Source: Candidatus Levybacteria bacterium RIFCSPHIGHO2_01_FULL_36_15b (GTDB lineage Bacteria; Patescibacteriota; Microgenomatia; Levybacterales; UBA12049). Taken from it: a DNA stretch of 64,000 bases. The translations under genes were made by a program, and so were the position numbers. Shown here one piece after another: positions 1,714 to 27,417 of this stretch; position 1 is the stretch's first letter, and each line of letters begins with the position of its first letter. The stretch is taken from NCBI GenBank assembly GCA_001782045.1, contig MFNK01000008.1, forward strand, positions 2,597 to 66,596, given 5' to 3'. The notes below the pieces were generated by a model. That model searched no databases. It was not told the origin of the DNA and saw only the letters and a program-made list of their open reading frames with translations.

Positions 1714-1742
1714 TTGATTTTTGTCTTATAGTGTGTTATATT
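1714..1742 (+). promoter_or_regulatory. sigma70-like promoter TTGATT-17-TATATT upstream of the first family gene
   Basis: TTGATT at 1714-1719, 17 nt spacer, TATATT at 1737-1742. Sits in the argS-downstream gap, so the in-frame ATG at 1749 is the more likely start. Confidence 0.4.
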
Positions 1743-1748
1743 CCACGC

Positions 1749-2300
1749 ATGGAAAAAGAACCAAGATTTTTTATCAATATTCCTGAAAGTGAAAGGGAAT
1801 ATACAATGCCAAAAATTAAAGAATACCCAAGAGACGGAGAAGAAACAGTAGTTTTTGAGGGGATTGGTGGACCTGTATTTGAAAAGAATCAAACGGAGAG
1901 AAAAGTGATTCGAAAACCAAAAGATTTTGTCACAAATACACCTAAAAATTCACCAAGAACAATTCTGGCTGAAATACTAAAAAAAAGAGGTATTGACGTT
2001 CGGATTTCAAACGAGACAACAGATATTTATGGGAGTCCTCTACCTGATTTTGTAGCAATTTTTGCAGAAGATGACGCGAGGCAAATATTCAACGAAATTT
2101 TTGATTCTGCCCAGTTTCGAGAGGATAGAGTGTATATTGACTTTGAGGATACAGACGATGAGCTTAGGCAGAAAATTATTCATGGAATTGAGGCAATTGT
2201 TGATAAAAAGCTTGGCCCGGTTGTTCAAGAGCCTCAAAAACCCTATATAACCGCGCGTGAAGTCGCGGATTTAGATCCGTATAGAGTAAGGAGTAAATAG
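1749..2300 (+). CDS. VADLDPY-motif family protein (member 1; motif at extreme C-terminus ...AREVADLDPYRVRSK*)
   Basis: ORF track 1731..2300; start at 1749 preferred (MEKEPRFF...) because 1731 lies inside the putative promoter. N-terminal module (DFVTNTPKNSPRTILAEILKKRGI) is paralogous to members 2 and 3. Confidence 0.6.
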   Translation: MEKEPRFFINIPESEREYTMPKIKEYPRDGEETVVFEGIGGPVFEKNQTERKVIRKPKDFVTNTPKNSPRTILAEILKKRGIDVRISNETTDIYGSPLPDFVAIFAEDDARQIFNEIFDSAQFREDRVYIDFEDTDDELRQKIIHGIEAIVDKKLGPVVQEPQKPYITAREVADLDPYRVRSK

Positions 2301-2301
2301 T

Positions 2302-2964
2302 ATGTCAATAGAAAAAATACAAGTTCAAATAAAGAGCTCAGAAATGAACGGGGAGCAGCGGTTAAAAACCCAAGGCACACCGGAAGATTTTATAACAAAT
2401 TGCCCCGAAAATTCGGTAAGAGTTATACTGGCACAGATTTTAATAGATAAAGGCTTAGAAGAACTAAGAATTGATCAGCCTTTAGGATCTGCTGGGAAGG
2501 GTGCAAAAGGAATATTCGGAACCAAAAGGGCCCGCGAAATTATGGAAAGGATAGTCCATACTCCGGAGTTTCATGTAATTTTTATAGCTCATGATATTTC
2601 GGATATTCCCTTAGCACCCAAAGACTTTGCAAATTTAAAACTAGAAAAATTTAAAAGTACAAAGCTTATAGAAGAATTTCAGATTCTTCAATTGAAGAAA
2701 CATGTTGAAAAACTTGAAGATCTCTTTCCCTATTCTTCCGACAATGCACAAATGAACAGATTTACTAGAGAAGAAGAGAAAAAATTGAATGAATTTATTG
2801 CTTCTGGGGTTCATATTCTCACCGATGAGGAAATAAAGGCAATAATAGAAGTTATTGTTGATGCAAATGCGAGACCGGAAGATCTAATAGACGAAAGGAT
2901 AAGGCACAGAACTCTTTCGGCAAACGAAGTTGCGGACTTAGATCCGTATGGAGTAAGAAAATGA
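2302..2964 (+). CDS. VADLDPY-motif family protein (member 2; C-terminal ...SANEVADLDPYGVRK*)
   Basis: 220 aa. Module GTPEDFITNCPENSVRVILAQILIDKGLEELRIDQPLGSAGKGAKGIFGTKRAREIMERI is nearly identical to member 3. Stop overlaps the next start (ATGA). Confidence 0.65.
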   Translation: MSIEKIQVQIKSSEMNGEQRLKTQGTPEDFITNCPENSVRVILAQILIDKGLEELRIDQPLGSAGKGAKGIFGTKRAREIMERIVHTPEFHVIFIAHDISDIPLAPKDFANLKLEKFKSTKLIEEFQILQLKKHVEKLEDLFPYSSDNAQMNRFTREEEKKLNEFIASGVHILTDEEIKAIIEVIVDANARPEDLIDERIRHRTLSANEVADLDPYGVRK

Positions 2965-3629
2965 GCAACAAAGAACAAGAGCTAAAAGAATTTAATTATG
3001 GCACGCCGGAAGATTTTCTTACAAATACTGGCGAAAACTCTACAGAAGTTATGTTGGCTGAAGTTTTGATAGACAAGGGCTTAAAAGGACTAAGAATTGA
3101 TCAGCCTTTAGGATCTGCTGGGAAGGGTGCAAAAGGAATATTCGGAACCAAAAGGGCCCGCGAAATTATGGAAAGGATCGATGATACTCCGGAGTTTGAT
3201 GTAATTTTTAAAGCTTGTGATGTGCCGGATATAAGATTAAATGCTTCAGATTTTGCGGATCTGACTTTGCAAGAATTCAAAGGTACAAAACTTCAAGAGG
3301 AACTCATTACTCTTCAACTGAAGAAAGAGATAGAAAATCTTAAAAGAATTTTCCTTGATTTTTCAGGTTATCCAGATATGAAAAAAAGCGTTGAAAAAAA
3401 GGAGCAGAATTTAACATTCTTTATAGATTCAGGAGTACATATTCCCACAGATGAAGAAATAAAAAAACTAATAGAAGCTATAGTAGACGCAAATACGACG
3501 CCTGAAGATTTTAAGGAAGAATCTCAAAAGGCAAAAGAAACTCTTAAACCTGTGGATTTAAAAGTTCAAAATAGGACCCTAAGAGCAAACGAAGTAGCGG
3601 ATTTAGATCCGTATGGGGTTAGAAAATGA
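2961..3629 (+). CDS. VADLDPY-motif family protein (member 3; C-terminal ...RANEVADLDPYGVRK*)
   Basis: 222 aa tandem paralog of member 2. ATGA overlap at both ends. Confidence 0.65.
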   Translation: MSNKEQELKEFNYGTPEDFLTNTGENSTEVMLAEVLIDKGLKGLRIDQPLGSAGKGAKGIFGTKRAREIMERIDDTPEFDVIFKACDVPDIRLNASDFADLTLQEFKGTKLQEELITLQLKKEIENLKRIFLDFSGYPDMKKSVEKKEQNLTFFIDSGVHIPTDEEIKKLIEAIVDANTTPEDFKEESQKAKETLKPVDLKVQNRTLRANEVADLDPYGVRK

Positions 3630-4378
3630 CAGAAAGAATAATAAACTACCAAAAAGAACAAAAGACGGAAGTTGTAATGGAGGGGATTATGGGTCCAGTT
3701 TCTATTCCTGTGGAAAAAACTCAAACTCCAGAAATTCCATCTCAAACTGCATCAAAAGATACATTAAGAGCTCACGAAGTAGCAGAGTTAGACCCGTATG
3801 GTGTGCGTTCAAAACCTTCTAAGCCGATTAAAGTTGAGCACTCTCCAATTCCAGAATTAGAAGTAATTGACGGAAGACACTTACATGGAAGCTCTAGGCT
3901 TATAGTTGCAGAAGTTTTAAAAGAAAAGGGCTACGGAGGCATTATAATAACGCAAGTCCCAGGAGAAGAATTTAAACAAATTAGAATAAAAAAAGAAAGA
4001 GCGCAACAGAAATTTGAAGAATTATGTGAATTACCTGACTTAAAGCTTTTGGAAGAAATTACAGATCCAAAACCTTTTTCCCAACCACCTGATTTAAGCA
4101 AAAGAGGAGAGTTCTACGAATTTGACAACATAGTCAATCAAAGAAGACTCAAGGCGCTTTACTATCAAGCAAAAATAAAACACTTAAAAGAGGCTTCAAA
4201 GCATTTTAAAATACCGCTGGAAGACGGAAAAGTTGTAATATATGAAGCGTTAATTGATGAAAATTTGAGATCATATCCCGGCACTAGTTTTGAAGCCCTG
4301 GTCAATAAAAGGGAAAAAATTCCCTCTAGGGCAGAAGTAAAACATTGGGTAAAACAGATCGTAATGCAAAACTTATGA
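3626..4378 (+). CDS. VADLDPY-motif family protein (member 4; motif near N-terminus, RAHEVAELDPYGVRSKPSKP)
   Basis: 250 aa. After the motif there is a module with LIVAEVLKEKGYGG and EEFKQIR, resembling the modules of members 2, 3 and 5. Confidence 0.6.
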   Translation: MTERIINYQKEQKTEVVMEGIMGPVSIPVEKTQTPEIPSQTASKDTLRAHEVAELDPYGVRSKPSKPIKVEHSPIPELEVIDGRHLHGSSRLIVAEVLKEKGYGGIIITQVPGEEFKQIRIKKERAQQKFEELCELPDLKLLEEITDPKPFSQPPDLSKRGEFYEFDNIVNQRRLKALYYQAKIKHLKEASKHFKIPLEDGKVVIYEALIDENLRSYPGTSFEALVNKREKIPSRAEVKHWVKQIVMQNL

Positions 4379-5622
4379 CAGAAAGCTCATCAGGGTTTGG
4401 CAGTAATATGCCGGAAAAGTTAAGAAGTCCAGAATTTGAAGATAGATTCCTTTGGGGAGCAGAGCCAGATAATTCTGTTGATTTAACTCTTGCAAATATC
4501 TTAAAAGAGAGGGGTATTAAGGGCATAGCTTTTGAAAGAAAAACAAGGGAAAACGATGGAGGGGAATATACAAATATATATGTAACCACTGATAAAGCAA
4601 GAATGACCATGAATAAAATAACTGAAATGCCGGAAATTGGTGCTTTAAGTGACGCAACTTACCCAGGGTTTAGTTTAGACGAGCCTGATTTTGATAAAGT
4701 TACCATTGAAGAATTTAAGAATGTAGATTTGCAAAACAGGTTAAAAGCACTTTTTTGTAAAAATACAATTGCAGATTTTGAAACGTGGCCAGATGATGGC
4801 TTAGAGGTTTGGGAAGACAACAGCAATGCAATGAATGTCAACCACTATACAGAGGAAATGGAAGAGTATTTAAGATTTAGTACGCCGAGTACTGTTCCGG
4901 ACGACGACGAAATAAAAGCATTAATTGAACTAATTGTTGATTCACAAGGAATACCAAGAAGAGAAAAAGAAGCTACAGAAGAAGTAATAGTTGTTGATTC
5001 AAAATCCACACTTAGCGCAAACGAGGTAGCTGATTTAGATCCGTATAATGTGCGCGGTAAGCCCATTCAAAACTCTCCAAAACAGCTTTTGGAAGAAAAA
5101 GAAACTTTAGGGGAATTGGAAATTTGGGGATCACATATTCCGGAATCCTCCAATTTAATTCTTGCAGAGCTTTTGCAGGAAGCGGGGTTCCAGGATATCG
5201 GGATAAAGGATGCAAAAGACGGGAAAAAGGACATTTATTGTAGTGATAATTATACTCGAAGAATAATAAATAGCACTTTTAATTTCTCGGATTTCCAAAT
5301 ACTTTCTCAAATTACAGGTGGTTATCCCAATGAATTGCCGGATTTTAGCAAAGCAGAATTCTCGGAATTTAAAAATGAAATCACACAGAGAAGGCTAAAA
5401 GGTCTACGTTATGACATCCTAATCAAGGAATATATAAGGTCCTGTCAAAGAAAAGGCATACCTATTAACGCTAATGCACAAGGATATATGGAAGCCAGTA
5501 AATCTGACGCTTTAATATATGAAATTACTCCTTACGGGACTGCTCCGCAAACTCTTCACTTAGAGATTCCCGACAGGAAAGAATTAAAAAACTGGATAAG
5601 AGAAATAATAAGTACTTTATAA
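4375..5622 (+). CDS. VADLDPY-motif family protein (member 5; internal motif SANEVADLDPYNVRGKPIQ separating two homologous half-modules)
   Basis: ORF track 4345..5622; ATG at 4375 gives an ATGA overlap with the member 4 stop, as elsewhere in the array. Two repeated modules (LANILKERGIKG...EEFKNVDLQNRLKALF and LAELLQEAGFQD...SEFKNEITQRRLKGLRY) flank the motif. Confidence 0.6.
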   Translation: MTESSSGFGSNMPEKLRSPEFEDRFLWGAEPDNSVDLTLANILKERGIKGIAFERKTRENDGGEYTNIYVTTDKARMTMNKITEMPEIGALSDATYPGFSLDEPDFDKVTIEEFKNVDLQNRLKALFCKNTIADFETWPDDGLEVWEDNSNAMNVNHYTEEMEEYLRFSTPSTVPDDDEIKALIELIVDSQGIPRREKEATEEVIVVDSKSTLSANEVADLDPYNVRGKPIQNSPKQLLEEKETLGELEIWGSHIPESSNLILAELLQEAGFQDIGIKDAKDGKKDIYCSDNYTRRIINSTFNFSDFQILSQITGGYPNELPDFSKAEFSEFKNEITQRRLKGLRYDILIKEYIRSCQRKGIPINANAQGYMEASKSDALIYEITPYGTAPQTLHLEIPDRKELKNWIREIISTL

Positions 5623-5631
5623 ACATTAATT

Positions 5632-6504
5632 ATGAAAGAATTAAATTTCCATTTAAGAGCAGACGAAGTAGCTGATTTGGATCCTTATAACGTTCGTGGA
5701 AAACCTGTTCAGCAGGCGGCAGAAGATCTTCTGGGGGATGAGCCTGAAAATGGCCTAGAAGGAGCTTTCAATTATGTCCAGGAAACGACCCTGGTAGTAA
5801 ATGAAAAATTGGCTTGGGAAAGAGTTTTTGGTTTAAGGCCGGAAATTGGGCCATTGCCACCTTATTTTACCCACGAAATGAAAGAAAAACTTGAAGAAAA
5901 CGGTTTTAATTTTATTTATATTCCTCATTTAGAGCTCGAGAACGGATGGCGTGGGCTAAGTACAGCGGGATATTTAAGTGCCTTACAAAGAGATTATCCA
6001 AACTGGAAAGCTCTTGAGTATCTTCCAGATATAGATAGAGATAATCCTAACGTACCAAAAAACTTAAGTCAGACCTTTTGGGACGACGTAGAAAGAGGGA
6101 ATATACCCTTTCCGCAACTTCCCGGTAAATGGATTGCTGTGGAGCATAGAGATGGAAGTTTTATGGAAGATCATCTAGGAATAAATTTTTATAATAGTGA
6201 TGATTGGAGCGAAATTTTATCAGGAATTACTATGAAACAGCAAAAAGCACTTGAAGAATTAGACCTTTGGGGATTCAGGGCGCATATTAGACTTCCTGAA
6301 GCAATTGAATGGAATCTTCTAGCTAATAGATTCGGGTGGGGAAGCCCCGGCGAATGGGACTGGACAAGCACCGAAACCAATGAAAATGAAATTGTAGTTA
6401 TGGGACTTTTTGACGATAAAATTAATAGCGAATTTAAGCTTGTTTCAAAACAAAGGAAAGATTTTCTGGCGCAACCAATAATTGATTTTAGTCTGGAAAC
6501 TTAA
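5632..6504 (+). CDS. VADLDPY-motif family protein (member 6; N-terminal LRADEVADLDPYNVRGKPVQQAAEDLLGDEPENG)
   Basis: 290 aa. The N-terminal motif and acidic linker match the N-termini of members 10-13. Confidence 0.6.
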   Translation: MKELNFHLRADEVADLDPYNVRGKPVQQAAEDLLGDEPENGLEGAFNYVQETTLVVNEKLAWERVFGLRPEIGPLPPYFTHEMKEKLEENGFNFIYIPHLELENGWRGLSTAGYLSALQRDYPNWKALEYLPDIDRDNPNVPKNLSQTFWDDVERGNIPFPQLPGKWIAVEHRDGSFMEDHLGINFYNSDDWSEILSGITMKQQKALEELDLWGFRAHIRLPEAIEWNLLANRFGWGSPGEWDWTSTETNENEIVVMGLFDDKINSEFKLVSKQRKDFLAQPIIDFSLET

Positions 6505-6563: not shown

Positions 6564-7862
6564 ATGAACTACACAAGAAAAGTATTAGACAATGGTGTCC
6601 GAGTTATAACAGTTCCTATGCCTTCGTTTGAATCTGCAACAGTAATGGTAATGGTTGGAGCAGGAAGCAGATACGAAACAACAAAAAACAACGGAATTTC
6701 CCACTTTTTGGAACACATGGCTTTTAAGGGTACGACAAAAAGACCAAGTGCCATGGATATTGCAAGCATGATAGATGGCATTGGAGGCGAATTTAATGCA
6801 TTTACAAGCAAAGAAGTAACAGGATATTTTGTAAAAGCTGCTAAAACACACGCAGAACTTTGCATGGATGTTTTATCCGACATGCTTCAAAATTCCAAGC
6901 TGGATGCAGCAGAAATAGAGAAAGAAAGAGGAGTAATTTTGGAGGAAATAAACCTTTACGAAGATACACCAAGCAGAAAAATAGGCGATATTTACGAAAG
7001 TCTCTTATATGGAGATACTCCGATGGGCTGGGATATCGCCGGCCAAAAAGAAGTTATAAAAAGTATTACAAGGCAGGATTTTGTTGATTATATGGCAAGC
7101 CTTTACAGCGCCAAAAATATGGTCGTTGTAGTTGCGGGCGGAATAATTCCGGACAAAATTGAGGCTATGGCCGTTAAGTATTTTGGCAAAATGTCACAAT
7201 TTGATACAGTAAAATATAGCCCAATAGTAGAAAACCAGGTCAAACCATCTCTTTATATAAAACATAAAGTTACGGAACAAGTTCATATAGCGGTTGGGTT
7301 CCGCACGGTTGCGCTCGAGCATCCGGATAGATACGCTTTATCGGTTTTAGGCTCAATTTTGGGTGGAGGAATGAGCTCGCGGCTTTTTAGCGAAGTTAGG
7401 GAAAAACGAGGGCTTGCTTATTACGTAAGAACCGGTTCGGAAAATTATCAAGATGCAGGAAATTTAGTATCAACCGCAGGACTTGATCCAAAAAGAGTGG
7501 ATGAGGGAATAAAAGTTGTAGTTGAAGAGTATTCTAAATTTGCAAGCGGAAAGGCAAATGTTACTAAAACAGAACTTGCAAAAGCCAAAGAGTACATAAA
7601 AGGGCATTTGGTTTTAGAAGAAGAAGACAGCCGCTTTATGGCTGCTTTTTACGCTCAAAACGAGCTTTTGGAAAAGAATATGGAAACGCCCGAAGAACTT
7701 ATTGAAAATATAGAAAAAGTAACAATGGAAGATGTAGAAAAAGTCGCCAAAAAATACTTTAAAAACGAAACATTAAATTTAGCAATAATCGGAAATTTTG
7801 ATCCTTCGACAGGCTCAGGACGAGCATCCGAGGCAAAATTTAAGAAGCTTCTGAAGATTTAG
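6564..7862 (+). CDS. M16 family zinc metallopeptidase (insulinase/pitrilysin-like)
   Basis: 432 aa. Inverted zinc-binding motif HFLEHMAFKGT (HxxEH). Peptidase_M16 N- and C-domain layout. Confidence 0.8.
   Translation: MNYTRKVLDNGVRVITVPMPSFESATVMVMVGAGSRYETTKNNGISHFLEHMAFKGTTKRPSAMDIASMIDGIGGEFNAFTSKEVTGYFVKAAKTHAELCMDVLSDMLQNSKLDAAEIEKERGVILEEINLYEDTPSRKIGDIYESLLYGDTPMGWDIAGQKEVIKSITRQDFVDYMASLYSAKNMVVVVAGGIIPDKIEAMAVKYFGKMSQFDTVKYSPIVENQVKPSLYIKHKVTEQVHIAVGFRTVALEHPDRYALSVLGSILGGGMSSRLFSEVREKRGLAYYVRTGSENYQDAGNLVSTAGLDPKRVDEGIKVVVEEYSKFASGKANVTKTELAKAKEYIKGHLVLEEEDSRFMAAFYAQNELLEKNMETPEELIENIEKVTMEDVEKVAKKYFKNETLNLAIIGNFDPSTGSGRASEAKFKKLLKI
7802..7820 (+). repeat. dispersed ~20 bp repeat, copy 1 (TCCTTCGACAGGCTCAGGA)
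   Basis: Read directly from the sequence. Overlaps the 3' end of the M16 peptidase ORF. Other copies at 23193, 24394, 24524 and 33674 (reverse). Confidence 0.6.
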
Positions 7863-8778
7863 CCTGTTTCCTCAAGCTTTCTCTTTCCTGTGCCAGTTTT
7901 ATATTTCTTACAGATTCTTCTCCGAGTTCTAATTTAGCCGGATATCTCAGCATAAAATAAGCACCCCACTTGTGAATGTCTACTTCTCTTTGTGCATTAT
8001 GAATCCAAAGTCCATTAGAGTCTTCTACAAAAGTTCCAACATCCTTAAGGCTGATTTTTTCTTCCCAAACTACTTTTTGTGGGTCTTTAATGTCAAAAAT
8101 AGTTAACTTATCGCCATTATTGAGCATGTGGAATCCTTCATAATCCCATTTTTCAACTAAAAGAGTGTCAGATTGTCTTTGCTCAATAACTCCGTCTTGC
8201 CACTCTACGGTTGCTCTTGTTATTTCTCCAGGCCTTATTCCATAAGGTCTTTCTGCAATAGGCGTTCCTCCTGCAGAATACCTTTTTCCTTTAGTATCTA
8301 CGGCAGTAGATTTATCCACCATAATCCAGTTTCCTTCGCCTAACTTCTCGTTAAACCTATCGGCTGAATATTTCATCTTGAATTCATACTTTTCCATCAA
8401 CCTTTTATCTGCTTCTTTGTCTCCTTCTTCTTCACCTACGTATAAAGAAGAAATATAATAATCTTCTTCTTTTTCCATTGGATCAGGAAGAAGATCCCAT
8501 TTTTCTCCGTGTAGTACTTCTGCATCGTCTTTAGTTTTTCCTTTTCTATCCGGATTATTTAAATCCCAAACTTCAGTGTTTCCAAAGACGCCGTCTGCTC
8601 TATCATAAGTTATAAAATCTCTGTCTTGGAATGCCCAGTATCCACCCTCGATGCCAGTTTCTGAGTAAAATTCTAACTTTCCTTTGTAGGTATGTGGGGG
8701 AAGTTTTTCTTTTGGCTCTCTTGTTTTATACGGATCTAAATCTGCAACTTCGTTTGCTCTTAACAATTCATTTTTCAT
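7840..8778 (-). CDS. VADLDPY-motif family protein (member 7; N-terminal LRANEVADLDPYKTREPKEK)
   Basis: 312 aa on the minus strand, convergent with the M16 peptidase gene and overlapping its end by about 22 nt. Confidence 0.55.
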   Translation of the reverse strand: MKNELLRANEVADLDPYKTREPKEKLPPHTYKGKLEFYSETGIEGGYWAFQDRDFITYDRADGVFGNTEVWDLNNPDRKGKTKDDAEVLHGEKWDLLPDPMEKEEDYYISSLYVGEEEGDKEADKRLMEKYEFKMKYSADRFNEKLGEGNWIMVDKSTAVDTKGKRYSAGGTPIAERPYGIRPGEITRATVEWQDGVIEQRQSDTLLVEKWDYEGFHMLNNGDKLTIFDIKDPQKVVWEEKISLKDVGTFVEDSNGLWIHNAQREVDIHKWGAYFMLRYPAKLELGEESVRNIKLAQERESLRKQAKSSEAS

Positions 8779-12661: not shown

Positions 12662-13402
12662 GTGAAAAGAGGAGAAGTTATTAAATTTATAATTCTGCGA
12701 ACTGTTGGGAATTTCTTGGTTCTTTTTGCAATTTATGGAATTATTGCGACTTTTGGTCCGGCACTCTATTACGAGCTAAACTATCGAATTCTAACAGCGC
12801 GTGGAGTAAAGTATATTGTTCAAAATCCACAAACTCAAAATATTCAGCCGACTCCAATGCCTAATCAGCCTCAAATTACACCCATTCCAACTTCGCCCAC
12901 ATCCAGGGGAGTTGCAAGCTTTACAGACGTTTTACTGGGCGCAAAAGAACAAGTTTTGGTGGCTCCGGATCCAGAGTTTAGTATTGTTATTCCAAAAATT
13001 GGAGCTTCTGCAAAAGTTTTTGCAAATGTGGATAGTTCGGATGAAAAAAGTTACCAGCAGATTTTGCAGCAGGGAGTTGCTCACGCAAGAGGAACAGTTT
13101 TCCCAGGTCTTTTAGGCAACATTTATCTTTTTGCCCACTCAACGGATAATTTTTGGAACGTTGGAAGATATAATGCAGTATTCTATTTGCTAAAAGACTT
13201 GCAGCCGGGGGACGAAATTACTGTTTTTTATCAAAATATTAGGCACGATTATATTGTTACAGGTTCTCAAATAGTTAACCCAAATGATGTTTCTCATATA
13301 GTTAATGCACAAAAAGAGAATAGTGAAACATTAATTCTTCAAACTTGCTGGCCGCCCGGAACCATTTTTCAACGGTTGCTTGTCTTTGCAAAACCAAAAT
13401 GA
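12662..13402 (+). CDS. sortase family transpeptidase
   Basis: N-terminal TM. Catalytic His (YLFAHST) and TLxTC motif (ETLILQTCWPPGT). Confidence 0.7.
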   Translation: MKRGEVIKFIILRTVGNFLVLFAIYGIIATFGPALYYELNYRILTARGVKYIVQNPQTQNIQPTPMPNQPQITPIPTSPTSRGVASFTDVLLGAKEQVLVAPDPEFSIVIPKIGASAKVFANVDSSDEKSYQQILQQGVAHARGTVFPGLLGNIYLFAHSTDNFWNVGRYNAVFYLLKDLQPGDEITVFYQNIRHDYIVTGSQIVNPNDVSHIVNAQKENSETLILQTCWPPGTIFQRLLVFAKPK

Positions 13403-16114: not shown

Positions 16115-17134
16115 ATGGCGCTGTCTAAACGAGTGGGCATAGATTTAGGTACTGCAAACACGCTAGTTTATCTGGCTGGGGAAGGAATTGTACTTAACGA
16201 GCCGACAGTTGTTGCCGTAACCGCAGAGGAAAATCGTGTAGTAGCAGTTGGAAAAGAAGCAAAGGAAATGCTAGGACGCACTCCCGGAAATATCGTAGCA
16301 ATGAGGCCGCTAAGAGATGGAGTAATAGCAGATTACACAATAACCGAGGCTATGCTTTCGTATTTTATAGATAAAGCCGCTGGTAGGTCTTTATTTTTCA
16401 AGCCGGAGGTTATGATTTGTATTCCTTCGGGTGTTACTCAAGTAGAAAGAAGGGCAGTTTTAGACGCAACTATGGCAGCCGGAGCAAGGGTTGCCTATTT
16501 AATAGAAGAGCCTTTAGCTGCCGCAATTGGAGCCAAAATTCCAATTGCCCAGCCCGCCGGACACATGATTGTTGATATAGGCGGAGGCTCAACTGAATCA
16601 GCAGTTATTTCCTTAGGAGGAGTTGTAGTTCATCATTCGGTTAGAGTTGGCGGAAACAAAATTGACGAAGCAATAGCTGCTTACTGCAAAAAGAAGTTTA
16701 ATTTATTAGTAGGAGAGCGAACGGCTGAAGAAATCAAAATTCAGATGGGAAATGCCTTGATTGATGAAAAGAAGGTATCAGATCAGAAAAAAATGGAAAT
16801 AAGAGGCCGTGACTCTATAACAGGGCTTCCTCGTACGATTGAACTAAATGAAGGTCAAGTAAATGAGGCTATTATGCCGGTTCTTTTAGATATTATTTCG
16901 GCAGTTAAGGGAGTTATGGAACAAACTCCTCCGGAACTTGCCAGTGACATTATTGATAAAGGAGTTGTAATGAGTGGGGGTACATCTCTTCTTACAAACC
17001 TTGATAAGTTAATGACTAAAGTAACAGGGGTTCCATGTCATGTTGCGGAAGATGCTCTTCTTTGTGTTGTTAGAGGAACAGGCGTAGCGCTTGAAAACAT
17101 AGAGCTTTATAAAAGAAGCATTGCTAAAAAATAA
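16115..17134 (+). CDS. mreB: rod shape-determining protein MreB (paralog 1)
   Basis: GIDLGTANTLVY phosphate-1 motif. Actin-fold ATPase layout. 339 aa. Confidence 0.9.
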   Translation: MALSKRVGIDLGTANTLVYLAGEGIVLNEPTVVAVTAEENRVVAVGKEAKEMLGRTPGNIVAMRPLRDGVIADYTITEAMLSYFIDKAAGRSLFFKPEVMICIPSGVTQVERRAVLDATMAAGARVAYLIEEPLAAAIGAKIPIAQPAGHMIVDIGGGSTESAVISLGGVVVHHSVRVGGNKIDEAIAAYCKKKFNLLVGERTAEEIKIQMGNALIDEKKVSDQKKMEIRGRDSITGLPRTIELNEGQVNEAIMPVLLDIISAVKGVMEQTPPELASDIIDKGVVMSGGTSLLTNLDKLMTKVTGVPCHVAEDALLCVVRGTGVALENIELYKRSIAKK

Positions 17135-18081: not shown

Positions 18082-18967
18082 TTACCTCTATATCGATTAC
18101 ATTTATCAATAAATCCTTTTATTAATGTTGGTAGTTAAAATTAGTATTTTTCATTTTCACAAATACAAATATTATGTTTTCATAAATTGTTAGATATACC
18201 AATAATTGTAAAACGTGTTGTATTTATTTTTAAAACTTACTAAAATTACGTAAATTTTGCTTGATTAATTATGATATCTTTAGTTATAAATTAATACTTA
18301 AAGATATATACTATATTAGTATCTGAGCCTGAATAAAAAAGTAGTCCTATATTATAAGTAAATGTCATAATGTTAAAATACGAAAAAAAATAGAAGATAT
18401 GTCAATTTTAAGGCTAAATATAACTAATTACCGAATATTTACCGAAAGAAGCATTTTAAGCTTGAGGTGATTTAATTTCACAAATTAGGGTTGCTTTTAC
18501 TCATAAAGCGCTACTAGAATCTAATTAAATATTAAACAATTGACTAAATGATTCTTTGTATTGAGTTTAAAATCTAAACACTTCACTTTTATGCTTAGCA
18601 CACATAATTTTCAGCTGCTAAAATACCCCTAAAAAAGCATTTTCACATCAAAGATTTAGGATATTTAATTAATTTTGAGTTCAATTCACCTAATTCGATT
18701 ATATTTCGTATTTATTCTTTAATTCGGGTTCTACCGCTCGCGCTCGATCGCTTATTAGGACACGCTCATCAATCTCTTTTTAAGATTTAGAATTTTCTCT
18801 CCACTTCGCTAAGTTAAAATCTGCACTAATCCTAATTTTCCAAACACAAACGCAGATTTTCAGTTGTCTCATAATCGACCGAAGCGCTCACGTCACCCGT
18901 AAAAATTCCAAATCTCGCATTCTTGCTATTTATTGAACATTAATCATTAATCATTTATTATTAATTT

Positions 18968-19843: not shown

Positions 19844-20506
19844 ATGATTGAACAAAGTAGGCTGGGATTAAGAGCTCATGAGGTAGCAGACCTAGATCCA
19901 TACAAAGTTCGCAAAATAGAGCTGCAGCTAGAGGCAGAAGAGCTTATTGTAAAAGAAGAACCGCGAGAAGAAGTTGGGAAAATGTACTTCACGAAAGAGC
20001 AGAAACAGCAGTTAGAGCAACAAGGATTTCAAATCTACAGACTTTCCGGAATTACTTCCAACGAAATGAAAGGAATAAGTTTTAAATATAATTTTTTAAG
20101 AAGTGGTTTGCGTAAGTTGATGAATGAAAAATCCATGGAAGGAGAAGTTGCTATTGATCCAAATAATTTTTTTTGGCAAGAGACGGCTTATAAAAAATAT
20201 TTAGAGCAGGCAGAAATTGTTCTTTCCAATAAAAATAAGAGAGGAGTAGAAGGTACAAGATTTATTTGGGGCAACGTTGCTGACTATGTGGAATTGAGCT
20301 ATCTATACTTTCGAAGAAACACAAAACCTTTTGGATCTTTATTTAAATCCGACTGGGCAAGAACTTCTGGACCAGGTCCAAATCTTTCAGTTGCCATAGT
20401 TACAATTAAAGACAACTTTGTTCAATTTAAATTTGAAGACACAGATAAAATGTCGGAAAATATTAAAATTGCACCACTTCTTATAAAAGACGTTCAAATT
20501 GATTAA
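19844..20506 (+). CDS. VADLDPY-motif family protein (member 8; N-terminal LRAHEVADLDPYKVRK)
   Basis: 220 aa. Shares the FTKEQKQQLEQQGFQIYRLSG module with members 9-11. Confidence 0.55.
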   Translation: MIEQSRLGLRAHEVADLDPYKVRKIELQLEAEELIVKEEPREEVGKMYFTKEQKQQLEQQGFQIYRLSGITSNEMKGISFKYNFLRSGLRKLMNEKSMEGEVAIDPNNFFWQETAYKKYLEQAEIVLSNKNKRGVEGTRFIWGNVADYVELSYLYFRRNTKPFGSLFKSDWARTSGPGPNLSVAIVTIKDNFVQFKFEDTDKMSENIKIAPLLIKDVQID

Positions 20507-20511
20507 TAGAT

Positions 20512-21417
20512 TTGATTTTGTATATTACGAGTCTATATAATTTAACTGTGGCTGAAGCGAAAAAAGACGAATTTTTATCAAGAGAAGATATTCCAGATCC
20601 ACCTTCTTCGATAAGTAAGAGCAGAAGGCTCGAAATCCAAAAGGAGTTAGAAGAACTTGAAAAAGAAGGATTTCCCAAACAATCTAGTAAGTCTACAACT
20701 GTAGAAAAAGTACCAGAAAAAAGACCAGGAAAAGATTTTCAAAGGCCAGATGAGTGGGTAGATCAAGATCCTTACAATGTTCGTGGGAAACCTAAGCAAG
20801 AAGCAGCAAGAGAGCTTTTGAGTTCTGATGAAGAAAAACAAACTAAATTATTAGAGCAAGAGGGTTTTGGATCTTTTACACAAGAACAAAAAGTAGAACT
20901 CGAAAGTAGGGGTTTTGAAATTTATAAATTGACAGGAATTTCAATGGCAGATATGCAGGATAAAATAGAATTTGCAACTAATGTAGGCCCTGATTTTGTA
21001 AAAAATTTGAAATCCAGCGTCGGTGAAGTAGCAGTTGTGCATACTCCAGGTTTATTCTTTCTATCAAACAGTAGTCAAAAGACTCTCGCCGAGCAGCAGG
21101 AAATAATTGATTTGTTTTCCGCAAGATTAAGTAGCGATATTCCCGGAGTTAAAGCAATAATTGGAGAAGCAGCTGATTATATTGCGATTGCGGATCAAGA
21201 CAGTAGAATTCAAGATGAGCGTAGTAGGCTTTTCGGGCTTCGTTACGCTGGCAGTATTCGTACCTCAACTACACGTGGTAGATATCGTTCTGAAAAATTA
21301 TCCCTTGCTCGAGGAATGAAAAAAGAACTCCATGTTATGTTTTGGGGTGACGATTTAAACCAATTTAAAGATCTATTTGTTGCTCCCTTGATTATTCCTA
21401 ATAATGACAGAACCTAA
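20512..21417 (+). CDS. VADLDPY-motif family protein (member 9; divergent motif WVDQDPYNVRGKPKQEAARELL at about residue 80)
   Basis: 301 aa. FTQEQKVELESRGFEIYKLTG module. Confidence 0.5.
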   Translation: MILYITSLYNLTVAEAKKDEFLSREDIPDPPSSISKSRRLEIQKELEELEKEGFPKQSSKSTTVEKVPEKRPGKDFQRPDEWVDQDPYNVRGKPKQEAARELLSSDEEKQTKLLEQEGFGSFTQEQKVELESRGFEIYKLTGISMADMQDKIEFATNVGPDFVKNLKSSVGEVAVVHTPGLFFLSNSSQKTLAEQQEIIDLFSARLSSDIPGVKAIIGEAADYIAIADQDSRIQDERSRLFGLRYAGSIRTSTTRGRYRSEKLSLARGMKKELHVMFWGDDLNQFKDLFVAPLIIPNNDRT

Positions 21418-22135
21418 AAAAGACGAAATGATGAGATCAGATCAGGTCGCGGATTTAGATCCGTATAACCAGCGTGGAAAACCAAAGCAAGAAGCCGCAA
21501 GGGAGCTTTTGGGGGATGAGCCGGAAGTTGAGGAAGATGAGAATTTTGATGGACCAAAGTTTACACAAGAGCAAAAAGTAAAACTGCGCGATTACGGTGC
21601 GGAAATATTTACACTTCACGGAGAGTCTATAAATTCATTAAAAGAAAAAGGATTAAAAGTATGGTCGAATTTAGACTCTTCCGATTTCCAGCTTGGCTAT
21701 GAAGGACATAAAACTGAAGTGGCAATTAGACTAGCTTCAAATTATCTTTTCCTACCAGATAGTAACAATAAAAATTATGATGAACAAGCAAATATGGTAA
21801 CAAACTATTCATTGGAGCTTGAAAGAAAAATTCCAGGCATTTATGCATCGCTCGGATTTCCAAGTGACTATGCAGAAATAGTACTGCATTGCTTAACCAA
21901 GCGTGGACTAGAATTGTTCAAAGGTACAACTCCTAATGGAGGGTATATGTACACCAGTACAGCAATGAGTAGATCGGAAAGCTTAGGATCGGGAAAAACA
22001 GATTCATTTTTTATATCAGTAGGCGGAATGGATGAATATGGACTTGGCATACATGCTTTTTCTGCAACAGAAGATATTAGTTTTATATTTGCAACCCCCT
22101 TGATTTTCCCTGATTCAAATCGAGTTAATTTATGA
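21404..22135 (+). CDS. VADLDPY-motif family protein (member 10; N-terminal MTEPKKDEMMRSDQVADLDPYNQRGKPKQEAARELLGDEPE)
   Basis: 243 aa. 14 nt overlap with member 9. The N-terminal 45 aa are near-identical to members 11-13. Confidence 0.6.
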   Translation: MTEPKKDEMMRSDQVADLDPYNQRGKPKQEAARELLGDEPEVEEDENFDGPKFTQEQKVKLRDYGAEIFTLHGESINSLKEKGLKVWSNLDSSDFQLGYEGHKTEVAIRLASNYLFLPDSNNKNYDEQANMVTNYSLELERKIPGIYASLGFPSDYAEIVLHCLTKRGLELFKGTTPNGGYMYTSTAMSRSESLGSGKTDSFFISVGGMDEYGLGIHAFSATEDISFIFATPLIFPDSNRVNL

Positions 22136-22836
22136 TTGAACCTAAGAAAGACGACATGATGAGATCAGATCAGGTTGCGGACTTAGATCCGTATAACATG
22201 CGTGGTAAACCAAAGCATGAAGCTGCGAGGGAATTGATTGGGGAAGAGCCTGAAGTTGAGGAAGAACAATTTGATGGTCTAAAGTTTACCCAAGAACAAC
22301 GAGAAAAATTGGAAGAAGTGGGACTCACGATTCTTCAATTAGAAAATTTAACTTTTGACGATCTATATAATAATGGTTTAGGCAAAATTTATGAAACCAA
22401 ATATTTTGATTTAATAGAGAAGATGAATAATGATAGGTCCATTAAAACAGAAGTGGCAATAAACATTTTGGACCCTTTTATTAAAGATAGTTTTTTTAAA
22501 ACATTTGGTGAGCAGATTGAGCTTGTGCGACTCTTTGATGAGCAAATTAGAAATCAGATTCCAGGAGTTAAAGCTAATATTGCCGAAGCAGTAGACTTAG
22601 CCCAAATATCTTTTATTCACGCAAAAGAATCATATTTTTATGTATATAATAATTATACTAGAACCAGCACTTCGATAGATGGAAAATTAGTAGCAATAAG
22701 TGATCAGTATAACTCAGGCACCTCTAGCACCTTTATTAAAACTCGTTTTGATTTTGTTGATAGGGATAGTAAATTACCATCTTTAGGAATAGTCGCATTA
22801 ATATACCCTGAAAGTTATCCGGGCAAGTCAGATTAA
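22132..22836 (+). CDS. VADLDPY-motif family protein (member 11; N-terminal MIEPKKDDMMRSDQVADLDPYNMRGKPKHEAARELIGEEPE)
   Basis: 234 aa. ATGA overlap with member 10. Recent paralog, with DNA-level similarity across the first ~120 nt. Confidence 0.6.
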   Translation: MIEPKKDDMMRSDQVADLDPYNMRGKPKHEAARELIGEEPEVEEEQFDGLKFTQEQREKLEEVGLTILQLENLTFDDLYNNGLGKIYETKYFDLIEKMNNDRSIKTEVAINILDPFIKDSFFKTFGEQIELVRLFDEQIRNQIPGVKANIAEAVDLAQISFIHAKESYFYVYNNYTRTSTSIDGKLVAISDQYNSGTSSTFIKTRFDFVDRDSKLPSLGIVALIYPESYPGKSD

Positions 22837-23143: not shown

Positions 23144-23169
23144 TTAAGAAACTCCTATACAACAAAAAA

Positions 23170-23190: not shown

Positions 23191-23192
23191 TG

Positions 23193-23212: not shown

Positions 23213-23220
23213 TAGCTAAA

Positions 23221-23616
23221 TTACTTTAGCTCTACAGTTGCACCCGCTGCGGTTAATTTTTCCTTAGCTTCATCAGCTGTCTTTTTGTTGACTGCTGTCA
23301 TTACCTCTTTTGGAGCCGTATCTACCAATGCTTTTGCATCGGCAAGTCCCAAAGTTGGAACTAATTCTCTTACAGCTTTAATTACTGCAATTTTGTTTGC
23401 TCCGCCGGACGCTAAAACGACGTTGAATACCGTCTGTTCACTGGCTTCTTCTCCGCTTTCTGCTGGCGCTGCGGCTCCGGCTGCTGGTGCTGCTGCAACC
23501 ACTGCTGCGCTGACACCAAATTTGTCTTCCAAAGCCTTAACAAATTCTGACAGTTCGAGAACTGACATTTCTTCAACTGCTTTTAAAAGCTCTTCTTGTT
23601 TTGCTTTTGCCATCAA
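23221..23616 (-). CDS. rplL: 50S ribosomal protein L7/L12
   Basis: 131 aa. Ala-rich hinge. C-terminal domain ...[15 protein letters not shown]. Confidence 0.9.
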
Positions 23617-24386: not shown

Positions 24387-24393
24387 AATAATA

Positions 24394-24414
24394 TCCTTCG
24401 ACTGCGCTCAGGAT
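24394..24414 (+). repeat. dispersed ~20 bp repeat, copy 3 (TCCTTCGACTGCGCTCAGGAT)
   Basis: Read directly from the sequence. Confidence 0.55.
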
Positions 24415-24523
24415 TGTGTTCTATTTTAAATTTTCAAGAGGAACACAAAAAACTCGTCTAAGACGAGTAAATAAGTTTGAGCTGAACTTTAGTTTTCCTC
24501 GGTAGGACTTATAGATTGAAGCG

Positions 24524-24544
24524 TCCTTCGACTTCGCTCAGGAT
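24524..24544 (+). repeat. dispersed ~20 bp repeat, copy 4 (TCCTTCGACTTCGCTCAGGAT)
   Basis: Read directly from the sequence. Confidence 0.55.
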
Positions 24545-24611
24545 TTAGCTTCGCTCAACCCACTGTCTTAGGTTATGTTAGTTTAACAAATACAAAAGTA
24601 TTTTTCAATAC

Positions 24612-24800
24612 TTAATTATGAGGGTTTTTTTCCGCCTGAAAAACTGTTTCTGAATTTCCTTTTGGTTTATCTATGTCTAAAACTCTAGCGGAGCCGACGA
24701 AATCAGAAGCATCCGCTTTCTGATATGGAGGTAAAACATATCTTATTTTAGGATACCTTTTCTGCGTCCTTTGTCTTTCTTGAGCTCTTTCTCTACTCAT
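24612..24800 (-). CDS. small basic hypothetical protein (62 aa)
   Basis: Arg/Lys-rich N-terminus (MSRERAQERQRTQKRYPKIRY). Could be a real small protein or spurious. Confidence 0.25.
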   Translation of the reverse strand: MSRERAQERQRTQKRYPKIRYVLPPYQKADASDFVGSARVLDIDKPKGNSETVFQAEKNPHN

Positions 24801-24835
24801 AAGAAGTGATATTATAACTTATAACTATCTTAAAC

Positions 24836-25573
24836 TCAAGACGTTACGCTTTTTGCGTAATAGCCCCTGTTTTCTTTTGGAAGAAGCACTGCAAGCCTTC
24901 CCATCATTAGATTGATAATTGACTTATCCGGATAAAGCACTTTTTCCATGGAAATTTCTTCATAAGAGTAGGGAGTTCCAACCTCAACAACGGTTTGGGT
25001 TAGGGGAGGAAATATTTGATACGGGTGTAGCGCTATAGGCAAGGCAAGTGAGCTATCTTTAGCAATTCTAAATAAAATATCAATTCCAGGCTCGGCTTTT
25101 ATTAATCCGCCTGTTTTACTTCTTGTGCCTTCAGGAGCAATTGCTAAAATCCGACCTTTTGTTTTTAATGCTTCTATTGCTTTTTGTACTGAAACCCGAT
25201 TAAAGTTGCTTGAATCTTGGTATAAATGCGCTTCATATCTTTGGACGACCTGCAAAACATCAAATCCTCTTGTTTTCGCAAGGCCATGTATTACTGAATT
25301 TTTAATTCTTGAAGAAACTCCTCTCTGTGGGTCAAGATGTTTTCTTCCTGCGAGGATGCTCAAATTAGAAAGAGACAAGTTTTCATCTAAAAATCTTGCT
25401 AAAACTGTAGTATCTAGGGTAGAGAAGTGGTTCGTATACAAAAGAAGCGAGCCTTGCTTCAAATGAGCCTTGGCTTTGTCTAAATTATTATCTGGATCAT
25501 TAACTTCGTATCTTACAGCTTTTGAAAGCTGCCAAAGCGTTTCAACTAGCGGACGAGAATCTTTTTCTTTCAT
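24836..25573 (-). CDS. lysophospholipid (1-acyl-sn-glycerol-3-phosphate) acyltransferase, PlsC family
   Basis: HxxxxD motif (NHFSTLD) and PEGTRS motif III. Confidence 0.7.
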   Translation of the reverse strand: MKEKDSRPLVETLWQLSKAVRYEVNDPDNNLDKAKAHLKQGSLLLYTNHFSTLDTTVLARFLDENLSLSNLSILAGRKHLDPQRGVSSRIKNSVIHGLAKTRGFDVLQVVQRYEAHLYQDSSNFNRVSVQKAIEALKTKGRILAIAPEGTRSKTGGLIKAEPGIDILFRIAKDSSLALPIALHPYQIFPPLTQTVVEVGTPYSYEEISMEKVLYPDKSIINLMMGRLAVLLPKENRGYYAKSVTS

Positions 25574-25603
25574 CGGCGCAATATTATCAGATATAATGGG
25601 TTT

Positions 25604-26284
25604 ATGGAAGAGGAATTAGTAAAATCTCCGGAAATAAATGAAAGCGAATTTGACGTTGTTGTGGTTTTGGGTGGCAATATTCGAAAAGATAACAATGGAA
25701 ATTGGAGAACATCTAGCTTTGAAGAAGGGGAAGAAAAATCAATGGGAGCGCATGGTAGAATCCTAGCCGCATCCGAACTTTATAAACAAGGCAAAGCAAA
25801 AAACTTTATTGTTTGTACTGGGCTTAGTTCTAATATATCCGGTCAGCCAGGAGTTTTGGAGCCGCAAGCACCAACCGAGGCAGAAGTAATGGCTTGGGAG
25901 CTAGAAGAATATGGAGTTCCTAAAAATTTAATAATTCGCGAAGATATTTCTGACAGCACTTTAGCAAACGTTAGAGAGGCTGCAAGAATTATAAGAGAAC
26001 ACAATTTTAAAAATGTTGGTCTTCTTACAAGTTTTTGGCATTTAGAAAGGGCAATGGTAATGATGGAATCCCAAAGGCTGGACACAGAAGGAAGACACGT
26101 TACTCCTTTATCATCGGAGGATATTCTTGCGGAAAAATCCTCTCACCACGCTTATTTAATTAATAAAGTAAAGGAAGCGCCAACAATGCAAAAAAGAATT
26201 GAAGCAGAAAATAGAGGATTACAAGCATTCAAAAGCGGAGACTATAACCAAACTCCTCATGGAACAAACCCGACGAAAGATTAG
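25604..26284 (+). CDS. DUF218 (YdcF/SanA/ElyC-like) domain protein
   Basis: VVVLGG, RILAASELYKQG and EDISDSTLANVREAARII segments match the DUF218 pattern. Confidence 0.5.
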   Translation: MEEELVKSPEINESEFDVVVVLGGNIRKDNNGNWRTSSFEEGEEKSMGAHGRILAASELYKQGKAKNFIVCTGLSSNISGQPGVLEPQAPTEAEVMAWELEEYGVPKNLIIREDISDSTLANVREAARIIREHNFKNVGLLTSFWHLERAMVMMESQRLDTEGRHVTPLSSEDILAEKSSHHAYLINKVKEAPTMQKRIEAENRGLQAFKSGDYNQTPHGTNPTKD

Positions 26285-26850
26285 GTAATGTTAAAAGCTT
26301 TTAAGATTTCTTCAGCCTTAACTCTATATTCATCTTCATCTGATATTATTTTCTCTCTAATTTCAAATAAGGGAACATTATTTTCTTCACATAGTATTTC
26401 TACTCCTGTTGCGAAGGGGCTATTATATGTTGAAAAGTTCATTCCGGTCATTGCTTCAGAATATGTGTGCATTTCCGGTAAAAGCACTACTCCGGTAGGT
26501 AAGCTTCTATCTTCTTTTTTTGATGTTGTATAATTTTCTACGTTGTAAAAATTGCTCAAATAAGAGTCTGCTTCATTTTGAACTGCAACTTGCTGTTGCT
26601 TAGCTCCAAGATCCGAAAGTAAATCAAATATCCATTTTCTTAATACAACTGATCTACTGGAAACAGAACCTAAAACAAGAATTCTGAATGGCTCTTTTTC
26701 TCTATTTATCTCTCTTGAATCTTTTTCCTCTGGTGTTTCTGGAAGCAATTCTCTTGCAGCTTCTTGTTTTGGTTTTCCACGCTGATTATACGGATCTAAG
26801 TCGGCAACATCGGGGGCTCGCATTATATCGTCTGTTTTAGGTTCACTCAT
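26281..26850 (-). CDS. VADLDPY-motif family protein (member 12; N-terminal MSEPKTDDIMRAPDVADLDPYNQRGKPKQEAARELL)
   Basis: 189 aa tandem paralog of member 13. Located between rplA and rplJ. Confidence 0.6.
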   Translation of the reverse strand: MSEPKTDDIMRAPDVADLDPYNQRGKPKQEAARELLPETPEEKDSREINREKEPFRILVLGSVSSRSVVLRKWIFDLLSDLGAKQQQVAVQNEADSYLSNFYNVENYTTSKKEDRSLPTGVVLLPEMHTYSEAMTGMNFSTYNSPFATGVEILCEENNVPLFEIREKIISDEDEYRVKAEEILKAFNIT

Positions 26851-27417
26851 TTATATTAAATTAAATTCTTTTAGAATTTCCTCAGTCTTTTCTGTTACGG
26901 CTTCGGGAGTTTGCAACATTTCATGAATTTCAAACAATGGGACATCATTTTCTTCACATAATTTTCTTATCATATCGGCAAATCCACTTTCGTAACTAGG
27001 AATTGTCATTCCTTCTCGGGAAGGGGAATACTGCCTCATTTCTGGCAATAGTACAACTCCGGTAGGAACACTTAATTCATCCTTTGTTGATGTATCTAAA
27101 TCGACCACGCCAAAAAAAGCGCTTTCAGCTGCGTCTACATCTCTTGCCGATCTTGTTGACGGATCTTTTGCTCCCGCACTTAAGAGATAATCATAAATTG
27201 TAGATCCTAAATCTAGACCGCCACTAAGTCTAGAACCTAACACGACAATTCGGTAGGGTTGTTTTGGTTTTAATCTTTCTTTAGCTACTTTTTCTTCTTT
27301 GGAATCTTCTAAAAGTTCTTTTGCTGCTTCGTGTTTGGGTTTTCCACGTTGATTGTATGGATCCAAATCCGCAACATCTGGGGCTCGCATCAATTCGTCT
27401 TTTTTGGGTTCGATCAC
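26851..27417 (-). CDS. VADLDPY-motif family protein (member 13; N-terminal MIEPKKDELMRAPDVADLDPYNQRGKPKHEAAKELL)
   Basis: 188 aa. Shares a C-terminal module with member 12 (PTGVVLLPEM...CEENxVPLFEI). Confidence 0.6.
   Translation of the reverse strand: MIEPKKDELMRAPDVADLDPYNQRGKPKHEAAKELLEDSKEEKVAKERLKPKQPYRIVVLGSRLSGGLDLGSTIYDYLLSAGAKDPSTRSARDVDAAESAFFGVVDLDTSTKDELSVPTGVVLLPEMRQYSPSREGMTIPSYESGFADMIRKLCEENDVPLFEIHEMLQTPEAVTEKTEEILKEFNLI

Follow-up and report, generated by a model that had tools for sequence, protein, structure and literature searches.

Thirteen open reading frames (ORFs) in a 64,000-nucleotide stretch of Candidatus Levybacteria bacterium RIFCSPHIGHO2_01_FULL_36_15b (contig MFNK01000008.1, positions 2,597 to 66,596; "the window" below is this whole stretch) share a peptide of about 20 residues, the "tag," with the consensus h-L-R-A-x-E-V-A-D-L-D-P-Y-x-x-R-(G)-K-P. 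Sequence comparison indicates that this tag is homologous to an internal junction in a widespread family of MoxR-class AAA_5 ATPases from candidate phyla radiation (CPR) bacteria, and that the genes carrying it are free-standing cassettes (junction plus linker plus module) produced by gene fission, not full members of the ATPase family. We consider it somewhat probable (roughly 0.6) that the detached junction serves as a linear docking tag linking many different modules to a single machine made up of the ATPase and a VWA protein.

The shared peptide and the ATPase junction

An earlier note on this DNA, made from the letters alone, had described 13 ORFs with a common motif taking up about 15% of the window, and translation of those ORFs together with a six-frame scan bears out both statements: the peptide hLRAxEVADLDPYxxR(G)KP is present in exactly these 13 ORFs (Table 1), their summed length of 9,840 nt is 15.4% of the window, and a relaxed-pattern six-frame scan found no further family member in it. 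All but one have an exact [AV]A[DE]LDPY, the remaining member (20512-21417) carrying the degenerate EWVDQDPYNVRGKPKQEAARELL, a QDPY form. D-P-Y and the R three positions on are invariant across the members, conservation of V, A, D and L reaches 90% or more, and in most members the tag is followed by an ..A..ELL helix and an acidic linker. The string LDPY occurs 13 times in the six-frame scan of the window, 12 of them in motif context, against a mean of 0.7 and a maximum of 4 in 50 shuffles. Under the invariant residues the codons vary synonymously (V as GTC, GTT or GTA; A as GCG, GCA, GCT or GCC; R as AGA, AGG, CGT or CGC), which means that selection acts on the tag peptide and not on a DNA repeat.

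The positions of the tag in the translations agree with the three C-terminal and two internal placements first reported, the others being N-terminal, but the claim that eight members begin with a conserved block of about 40 aa held only in part: the long M(I/T)EPKKDE..KPK(Q/H)EAARELL block is N-terminal in four ORFs (21404, 22132, 26281 and 26851), while in 20512 it is internal (aa 72-112) and 5632, 7840 and 19844 open with a different lead-in, followed by just the shorter core. The modules attached to the tag do look unrelated, as had been proposed: all-vs-all BLASTP and profile-profile comparison separate at least five mutually unrelated groups, namely X/X' (1749-5622), W (5632-6504), B (19844-22836), C (26281-27417) and the singleton 7840-8778. 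Between the module profiles HHalign found a single relationship, the homology of X with X' (98.7% probability), and none among W, B, C and X.

The 13 proteins are all acidic, and none has a signal peptide or transmembrane segment (19-residue Kyte-Doolittle maximum at most 1.19; charged N-termini), which leaves the suggestion that they are surface proteins unsupported. Models from Pfam, PHROG, NCBIfam and PADLOC gave no significant match to any member, a weak SenA (FGE-like) hint for 5632-6504 agreeing with its C-type-lectin / FGE-like fold, and the ATPase module is found in none of the 13. The motif does not map to any well-characterised housekeeping domain in Pfam, but it does have an identifiable origin.

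That origin lies in an AAA_5 ATPase for which we found 65 homologue clusters from Microgenomates, including Levy-, Shapiro- and Blackburnbacteria, mostly 800-940 aa long and 50-60% identical. The longer proteins (51-52 of them) carry the motif internally at about residue 600 (e.g., ..YLPYDRVVRLDPYSKLKRPVSADAEDLLQEEEP..), with the junction consensus ..YLxxxRVA[RK]LDPYRRFKRPxSAEAEELL followed by an acidic disordered linker. They share an architecture of N-terminal helical region, AAA+ module, junction, acidic linker and polymorphic C-terminal module, and the junction is the boundary at which they turn polymorphic, with at least eight unrelated C-terminal classes beyond it. A profile built solely from the 38-residue junction of 52 long CPR AAA_5 (MoxR-class) ATPases retrieved from the six-frame ORF set of the window all 13 ORFs and nothing else (E 8.5e-11 to 4.6e-3), and junction and tag align without gaps along some 25 residues, a span that takes in the P at +6 and the ..A..ELL helix. 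For one class of module the correspondence extends further: the C-terminal 300 aa of P0065, the AAA_5 protein of locus L015 (CPR contig ERZ27253378 k141_1528961), are homologous and collinear, motif included, both with 5632-6504 and with the W genes of loci L007, L009, L012 and L013 described below.

The ATPase/VWA operon and the spread of tagged genes

The free-standing motif is rare. A hidden Markov model (HMM) search of 1.84 billion representative proteins yielded 36 clusters at E <= 1e-3, most of them contributed by this genome or by two or three organisms related to it. Two of these clusters, A3B38_04505 and A3B38_04510, belong by their locus-tag prefix (A3B38) to the same genome, and they lie in an operon (L009) whose first gene, for a motif protein of 122 aa, is followed by those for a VWA protein of 683 aa, an AAA_5 ATPase of 615 aa and two motif-plus-W proteins of 350 and 318 aa, in that order, with a protein bearing the motif and a transmembrane segment encoded divergently alongside. 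The genome has at least 17 tagged genes in all. The arrangement is kept in two other organisms (L012 and L013/L014), and in all three the first gene encodes a small tag-bearing protein directly upstream of the VWA gene; in L013 a B-type gene stands directly upstream of the operon. In Levybacteria the operon is chromosomal, among recF, fpg and ftsH.

The ATPases of these operons are truncated. In three Levybacteria-like organisms they are 615-620 aa long and end in ..LNSWNGGSS, about 15 residues short of the junction, and the next gene overlaps the ATPase gene by ATGA and starts with the junction; the truncated state of the ATPase is conserved in the three organisms and on at least nine contigs. 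The W genes of L013 have variant tags (VASLNPY, VANLDPY, LASLDPY and VSNLDPY). The AAA_5 protein has a MoxR-class AAA+ fold with Walker A and Walker B motifs and a helical N-terminal extension of 250 aa; its best structural matches are CbbQ and NorQ, and at the sequence level it belongs to no named MoxR subfamily.

A VWA protein with an intact metal ion-dependent adhesion site (MIDAS) accompanies the ATPase in every case: the C-terminal VWA domain (Pfam VWA, 1.6e-7) follows a long charged linker, and its MIDAS (DxSxS..T..D) is complete, with D472, S476, T561 and D602 invariant in five orthologues. The N-domain of this protein is also strongly conserved, with an invariant HEIxxHxxE at residues 83-91 (L009 7519-9570, minus strand) that, from its sequence, may be a zinc-peptidase-like site; the N-domain has no family match in Pfam or the PDB, peptidases included. 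It also holds a DPxQDP[YL]xALR stretch with a faint likeness to the tag. Scans of the operon proteins with Pfam and PADLOC found no third core component (VMAP, iSTAND, FtsH or beta-propeller); the FtsH encoded about 4 kb from the operon is in a housekeeping context and not evidently linked to it.

How quickly the cassettes change is apparent from a close relative (SRR28401817, locus L007; arginyl-tRNA synthetase 85% identical), in which the syntenic array after argS consists of 11 consecutive motif genes, as compared to 6+1 here, and includes four W-type genes where the window has one. Between the two organisms the genes of the ATPase/VWA engine and the housekeeping genes are 85-93% identical and the cassettes mostly 39-59% (member 1, at 82% identity with L007 3588-4118, is closer), yet the tag is unchanged; it is likewise kept in the orthologous arrays of other organisms. 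Tandem amplification and diversification of the modules, both put forward in the earlier note, are borne out, and copy number varies between relatives. The M16 peptidase gene next to the array is not conserved in L007.

Searches beyond these relatives returned little. In its strict form the free-standing motif does not occur in 185k species representatives, among which the source genome is evidently not included (19 pattern matches, none confirmed), a word-indexed homologue search with the 40-aa motif alignment, a query too short for the index, gave nothing, and a metagenome motif scan gave two loci only, both from one further organism. The motif HMM also retrieved four basic proteins (P0029, at L023 2697-3809, P0031, P0034 and P0035) with four tandem ETSADLDPYG(V/A) repeats, encoded on short contigs in a phage lysis-cassette context (holin, M15 peptidase, lysozyme); we treat these as a probably unrelated, convergent repeat. 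Two further proteins, P0039 (L008 10001-10858) and P0038, are free-standing homologues of the C-type-lectin-like W module without a tag, and the gene for P0039 adjoins an ISL3 transposase gene and a gene for a multi-glycosyltransferase of 1,370 aa.

Table 1. Tagged genes of the window, with positions counted from its first nucleotide.
Member	Gene	Strand	Tag core (nt)	Tag placement	Module and remarks
1	1749..2300	+	2259-2291 (EVADLDPYRVR)	C-terminal	X-type; protein ends ..RSK
2	2302..2964	+	2926-2958	C-terminal	X; protein ends ..DPYGVRK; ATGA overlap with next gene
3	2961..3629	+	3591-3623	C-terminal	X; 60% identical to member 2
4	3626..4378	+	3776-3808	Internal, aa 55 of 250	X', after the tag
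5	4375..5622	+	5023-5055	Internal, aa 221 of 415	X before and X' after the tag
6	5632..6504	+	5665-5697	N-terminal	Acidic linker, then W (C-type-lectin / FGE-like fold)
7	7840..8778	-	8719-8751	N-terminal	Singleton
8	19844..20506	+	19880-19912	N-terminal	B
9	20512..21417	+	20752-20784 (degenerate EWVDQDPYNVR)	aa 85	B; N-terminal extension of ~70 aa
10	21404..22135	+	21443-21475	N-terminal block, MTEPKKDE..	B
11	22132..22836	+	22171-22203	N-terminal block, MIEPKKDD..	B
12	26281..26850	-	26779-26811	N-terminal block	C
13	26851..27417	-	27346-27378	N-terminal block	C; 52% identical to member 12

At two of the C-terminal tags (2940-2964 and 3605-3629) the Y-G-V-R-K codons (TAT GGA GTA AGA AAA) contain a Shine-Dalgarno-like GGAG, placed 8-9 nt ahead of the following gene's ATG, itself overlapping the stop codon as ATGA; this site may account for the G, rather than N, that follows the tyrosine in these tags.

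The window itself is ordinary chromosome of a groundwater CPR/Microgenomates metagenome-assembled genome roughly of the 1-Mb class. Besides argS and the M16 peptidase gene (6564-7862, between two members), it carries ndk, mreB, the genes for ribosomal proteins L7/L12, L10, L1 and L11, nusG, secE, genes for FBPase and PBP2, dprA, topA-like genes, six tRNAs and the start of a 16S gene. Only the tRNAs and the start of the 16S rRNA gene gave Rfam matches in the window, the latter being the 5' end of a bacterial 16S gene at 63924-64000 that continues past the window end. Other features of this stretch are two MreB paralogues (16115-17134 and 42431-43591), 46% identical and encoded within 64 kb of a small genome; a sortase gene (12662-13402); a gene for a PEGA-domain protein (14778-15980, minus strand); and, between WecG-family and GalT-like genes, an AT-rich stretch of 886 nt (18082-18967; GC ~0.33) that lacks ORFs of at least 40 aa and matches nothing in Rfam at E <= 1.

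Proposed docking and its alternatives

The sequence of events that we propose would begin with the splitting of the ATPase gene just before the junction, so that junction, linker and module became separate genes. Two of the split-off genes would have stayed directly downstream of the ATPase, the others being copied around the chromosome, 13 of them in the window, and the tag would have spread onto at least five unrelated, rapidly diverging soluble modules. The free tag, disordered alone, would fold onto the site on the ATPase (or on the ATPase/VWA complex) that the covalent junction holds in the fused homologues, and one MoxR/VWA engine could thus be loaded with any of at least 17 interchangeable modules. 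The occurrence of the tag at N-terminal, internal and C-terminal positions is as expected for a linear docking motif.

Structure prediction is consistent with this. In an AlphaFold2 model of the fused P0065 (multiple sequence alignment of 59 sequences) residues 601-610 (PYDRVVRLDP) have a predicted local distance difference test score (pLDDT) of 93 and residues 611-620 one of 83, the linker that follows falls below 50, and the tail is moderately confident; in the model of a free W protein the motif has a pLDDT of 36-45. A tag that is ordered only with the ATPase present, and that remains unchanged on separate, fast-evolving proteins, behaves as a docking element would. There is also a contrast in charge: free tags read E-V-A-[DE] and fused junctions R-V-A-[RK], and the truncated ATPases have the reciprocal changes E487K and K496E at two nearby positions, a swap that is at most suggestive.

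Several points weigh against docking. That the tag docks in trans is something we infer. The charge swap comes from one clade (5 sequences) and could be lineage noise. Among the 51 fused tails retrieved, a limited sample, only W was found and the X, B, C and 7840 modules were not, so that it is the tag by itself that connects these four to the ATPase. The 13 genes of the window sit among housekeeping genes, distant from the ATPase locus. The HEIxxHxxE of the VWA N-domain may leave room for cleavage at or near the tag. Finally, in two loci from other CPR bacteria (L015, 1-6300 and 12100-17700; L016, 1200-7200) the VWA/AAA_5 pair lies in a neighbourhood resembling an integrative and conjugative element or type IV secretion system (T4SS), with VirB4, TrbC-type pilins, a TraC-like protein, a VirD4-like coupling protein with DUF8128, a replication-relaxation-like protein and a serine recombinase, and this context of the parent system could mean a different function.

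The best placed of the alternatives, though an unlikely one, is that the tag binds the VWA protein, an acidic residue (the D of LDPY or the upstream E/D) completing the metal coordination of the MIDAS, and that the AAA+ ring then remodels or releases the module, in the manner of integrin I-domain ligands, midasin-Rsa4/Ytm1 or CbbO-Rubisco. Extended acidic peptides are known ligands of MIDAS sites (PMC7159879). The invariance of the MIDAS residues in the five VWA orthologues, the small tag-bearing gene upstream of the VWA gene in all three organisms, and the conservation of the tag even in fused proteins, where tethering to the ATPase would be superfluous, all fit such a role. On the other hand, the D of LDPY is N in one tag of L013 and the D ahead of LDPY is N or S in four, and the model of the fused ATPase orders the junction without any VWA protein, pointing to an intramolecular or ATPase contact; it is for this last reason that we rank docking to the MIDAS second.

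Rather less probable is that the tag is a leader or export signal that directs polymorphic effectors to secretion, for example by a T4SS, or to processing by the HExxH N-domain of the VWA protein or by the M16 peptidase. The earlier note had leaned this way, and a conserved short N-terminal block and linker on diversified, fast-evolving and amplified modules is indeed what such a system would present; the coupling protein, VirB4, pilin, relaxation-like protein and recombinase beside the L015 and L016 homologues, the invariant HEIxxHxxE and the position of the M16 gene between two members point in the same direction. However, neither the window nor the sequence within 10 kb of the Levybacteria VWA/AAA_5 operon contains T4SS genes, the members lack signal peptides and transmembrane segments, and in the ancestral fused proteins the tag forms an ordered stretch inside the chain. 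It is internal in two or three members as well, and in three it stands at the very C-terminal end, where the 4-5 residues left after the tyrosine fit a cleaved leader poorly. For the VWA N-domain, Pfam and the PDB offered no peptidase family, as noted above, and the M16 peptidase was rejected as the processing enzyme because its adjacency is lost in L007. With its homology to the ATPase junction and its tie to the VWA/AAA_5 operon, the tag does not look like an orphan leader or a secretion signal.

The tag marks the exact boundary of polymorphism in the fused ATPases, with their eight or more C-terminal classes, and the cassettes form tandem arrays whose copy number differs between relatives. 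Both facts would suit silent orphan cassettes of the contact-dependent inhibition (CDI) or Rhs kind, in which the tag DNA would be a homology block for recombination onto the 3' end of the ATPase gene and the ORFs would have no function in trans, but we regard this as very improbable. The resident ATPase gene has no tag, a state shared by the three organisms, each cassette is an intact ORF with a start of its own, in many cases ATGA-coupled, synonymous variation in the tag codons leaves only short DNA identity and bespeaks purifying selection on the peptide, and C-terminal tags could not serve the replacement of a 3' end. Chance similarity, or a translated DNA repeat without peptide function, has the shortness of the motif and nothing else in its favor and is refuted by the shuffle counts, the synonymous codon variation and the conservation of the tag in the orthologous arrays of other organisms.

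Known systems and a possible role of the cassettes

Two parts of this picture, the ATPase-CLec family (CLec, C-type lectin) and MoxR-VWA pairs, are already known. We know of no one who has established the function of AAA-ATPase-CLec proteins. The searchable literature holds no description of a discrete conserved junction peptide, of its fission or of its multiplication onto at least five modules, though Paul et al. (2017) may mention it, and a full-text search for DLDPY gave irrelevant matches only.

The AAA-ATPase-CLec proteins are, according to the account of Paul et al. (2017) given in PMC10907252, the commonest target architecture of diversity-generating retroelements (DGRs) in CPR bacteria; MoxR-vWA systems are associated with CLec/FGS sensors and with DGRs (PMC7159879), and the CLec/FGS domains are regarded as probable sensors (Doré et al., 2024, PMC10907252). 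A complete-looking DGR is present in L015 (5225-6830 and 11560-11712), where an RVT_1 reverse transcriptase gene lies beside a template repeat of ~126 nt; between this repeat and the 3' end of the AAA_5-CLec gene every mismatch falls at a template adenine, which by sequence makes the ATPase-CLec tail a genuine DGR target, and the variable region corresponds to the most divergent part of the W paralogues. The W gene of the window bears no such traces (no reverse transcriptase match and no second copy of the 3' end of 5632-6504 within the window), and the window and the loci examined from the Levybacteria lineage showed neither a reverse transcriptase nor a template repeat.

The window resembles the AAA-ATPase-CLec systems in its tag, homologous to their junction, and in 5632-6504, homologous to their CLec tail, and its W module shares with DGR variable proteins the C-type-lectin / FGE-like fold. 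It differs from them in that ATPase and tail are separate genes, in that the tag is on at least 17 genes of one genome with at least four further modules that are not CLec-like, and in that diversity comes from paralogy.

Like CbbQ-CbbO, NorQ-NorD and RavA-ViaA, the operon pairs an AAA_5 ATPase with an adjacent long, MIDAS-intact VWA protein with a charged linker, but the helical extension of the ATPase and the HEIxxHxxE N-domain of the VWA protein set it apart from all three. CbbQO and NorQD have one metabolic client each; here the proposed clients would be a diversified gene family and would carry a dedicated linear tag, which has not been described for either.

A parallel may also be drawn with the vWA-MoxR ternary conflict systems (Kaur et al., 2020, PMC7159879; Doré et al., 2024, PMC10907252), which likewise have a MoxR and vWA core with CLec/FGS and DGR associations and a shared adaptor element that couples many variable proteins, scattered over the genome, to one core. 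In contrast to these, no VMAP, iSTAND, FtsH or beta-propeller third component was seen here, the CLec is on the MoxR and not on the vWA protein, and the coupling element would be a linear peptide of ~20 residues derived by fission, not a folded homotypic effector-associated domain. There is also no recognisable effector domain (peptidase, TIR or nuclease) except for the candidate HExxH motif, and, unlike the multicellular hosts of those systems, the one here is a CPR bacterium with a small genome.

In CdiA-CT (VENN) and Rhs-CT (PxxxxDPxGL) proteins, too, a short motif lies between the constant part and the polymorphic C-terminal modules, and the same motif heads the arrays of extra cassettes. 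The conserved short motif at the border of constant and polymorphic parts and the extra cassettes recur here, but as self-standing, expressed-looking ORFs whose main gene has lost the motif, with no evident pairing to immunity genes, and the products are cytoplasmic proteins without a delivery domain.

As to what the cassettes do, we would speculate that they are a germ-line repertoire of recognition or adaptor domains for a conflict or surveillance-type MoxR-VWA system, in which gene amplification has replaced DGR mutagenesis; the guess is prompted by their fast divergence, their variation in copy number, the cytoplasmic modules and the CLec fold of one class. They may instead belong to mobile-element biology or to structure assembly. 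The fullest version of the idea, which we put forward only tentatively, is a hub-and-spoke form of intracellular recognition: one MoxR-VWA engine serving at least 17 swappable sensor or adaptor modules by means of a plug of ~20 residues taken from a split ATPase-CLec gene, with paralogue amplification in place of retroelement hypermutation. If this is true, it would be a natural split-protein "tag and dock" architecture for an AAA+ machine, and a minimal, portable docking peptide for an AAA+ ring would be of interest to protein engineering.

The locus is a natural dissection of the AAA-ATPase-CLec proteins, with the engine and the variable tail separate and joined by a defined short peptide, and it makes testable the ligands of the tail modules, the junction as the element that couples MoxR and VWA, and paralogue expansion and DGR mutagenesis as alternative routes to diversity. 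That so large a share of the 64-kb stretch is given over to a family of at least 17 genes, which diverge several-fold faster than housekeeping genes, suggests a role under strong diversifying pressure, possibly from the encounter of symbiont and host or from conflict with phages or mobile elements.

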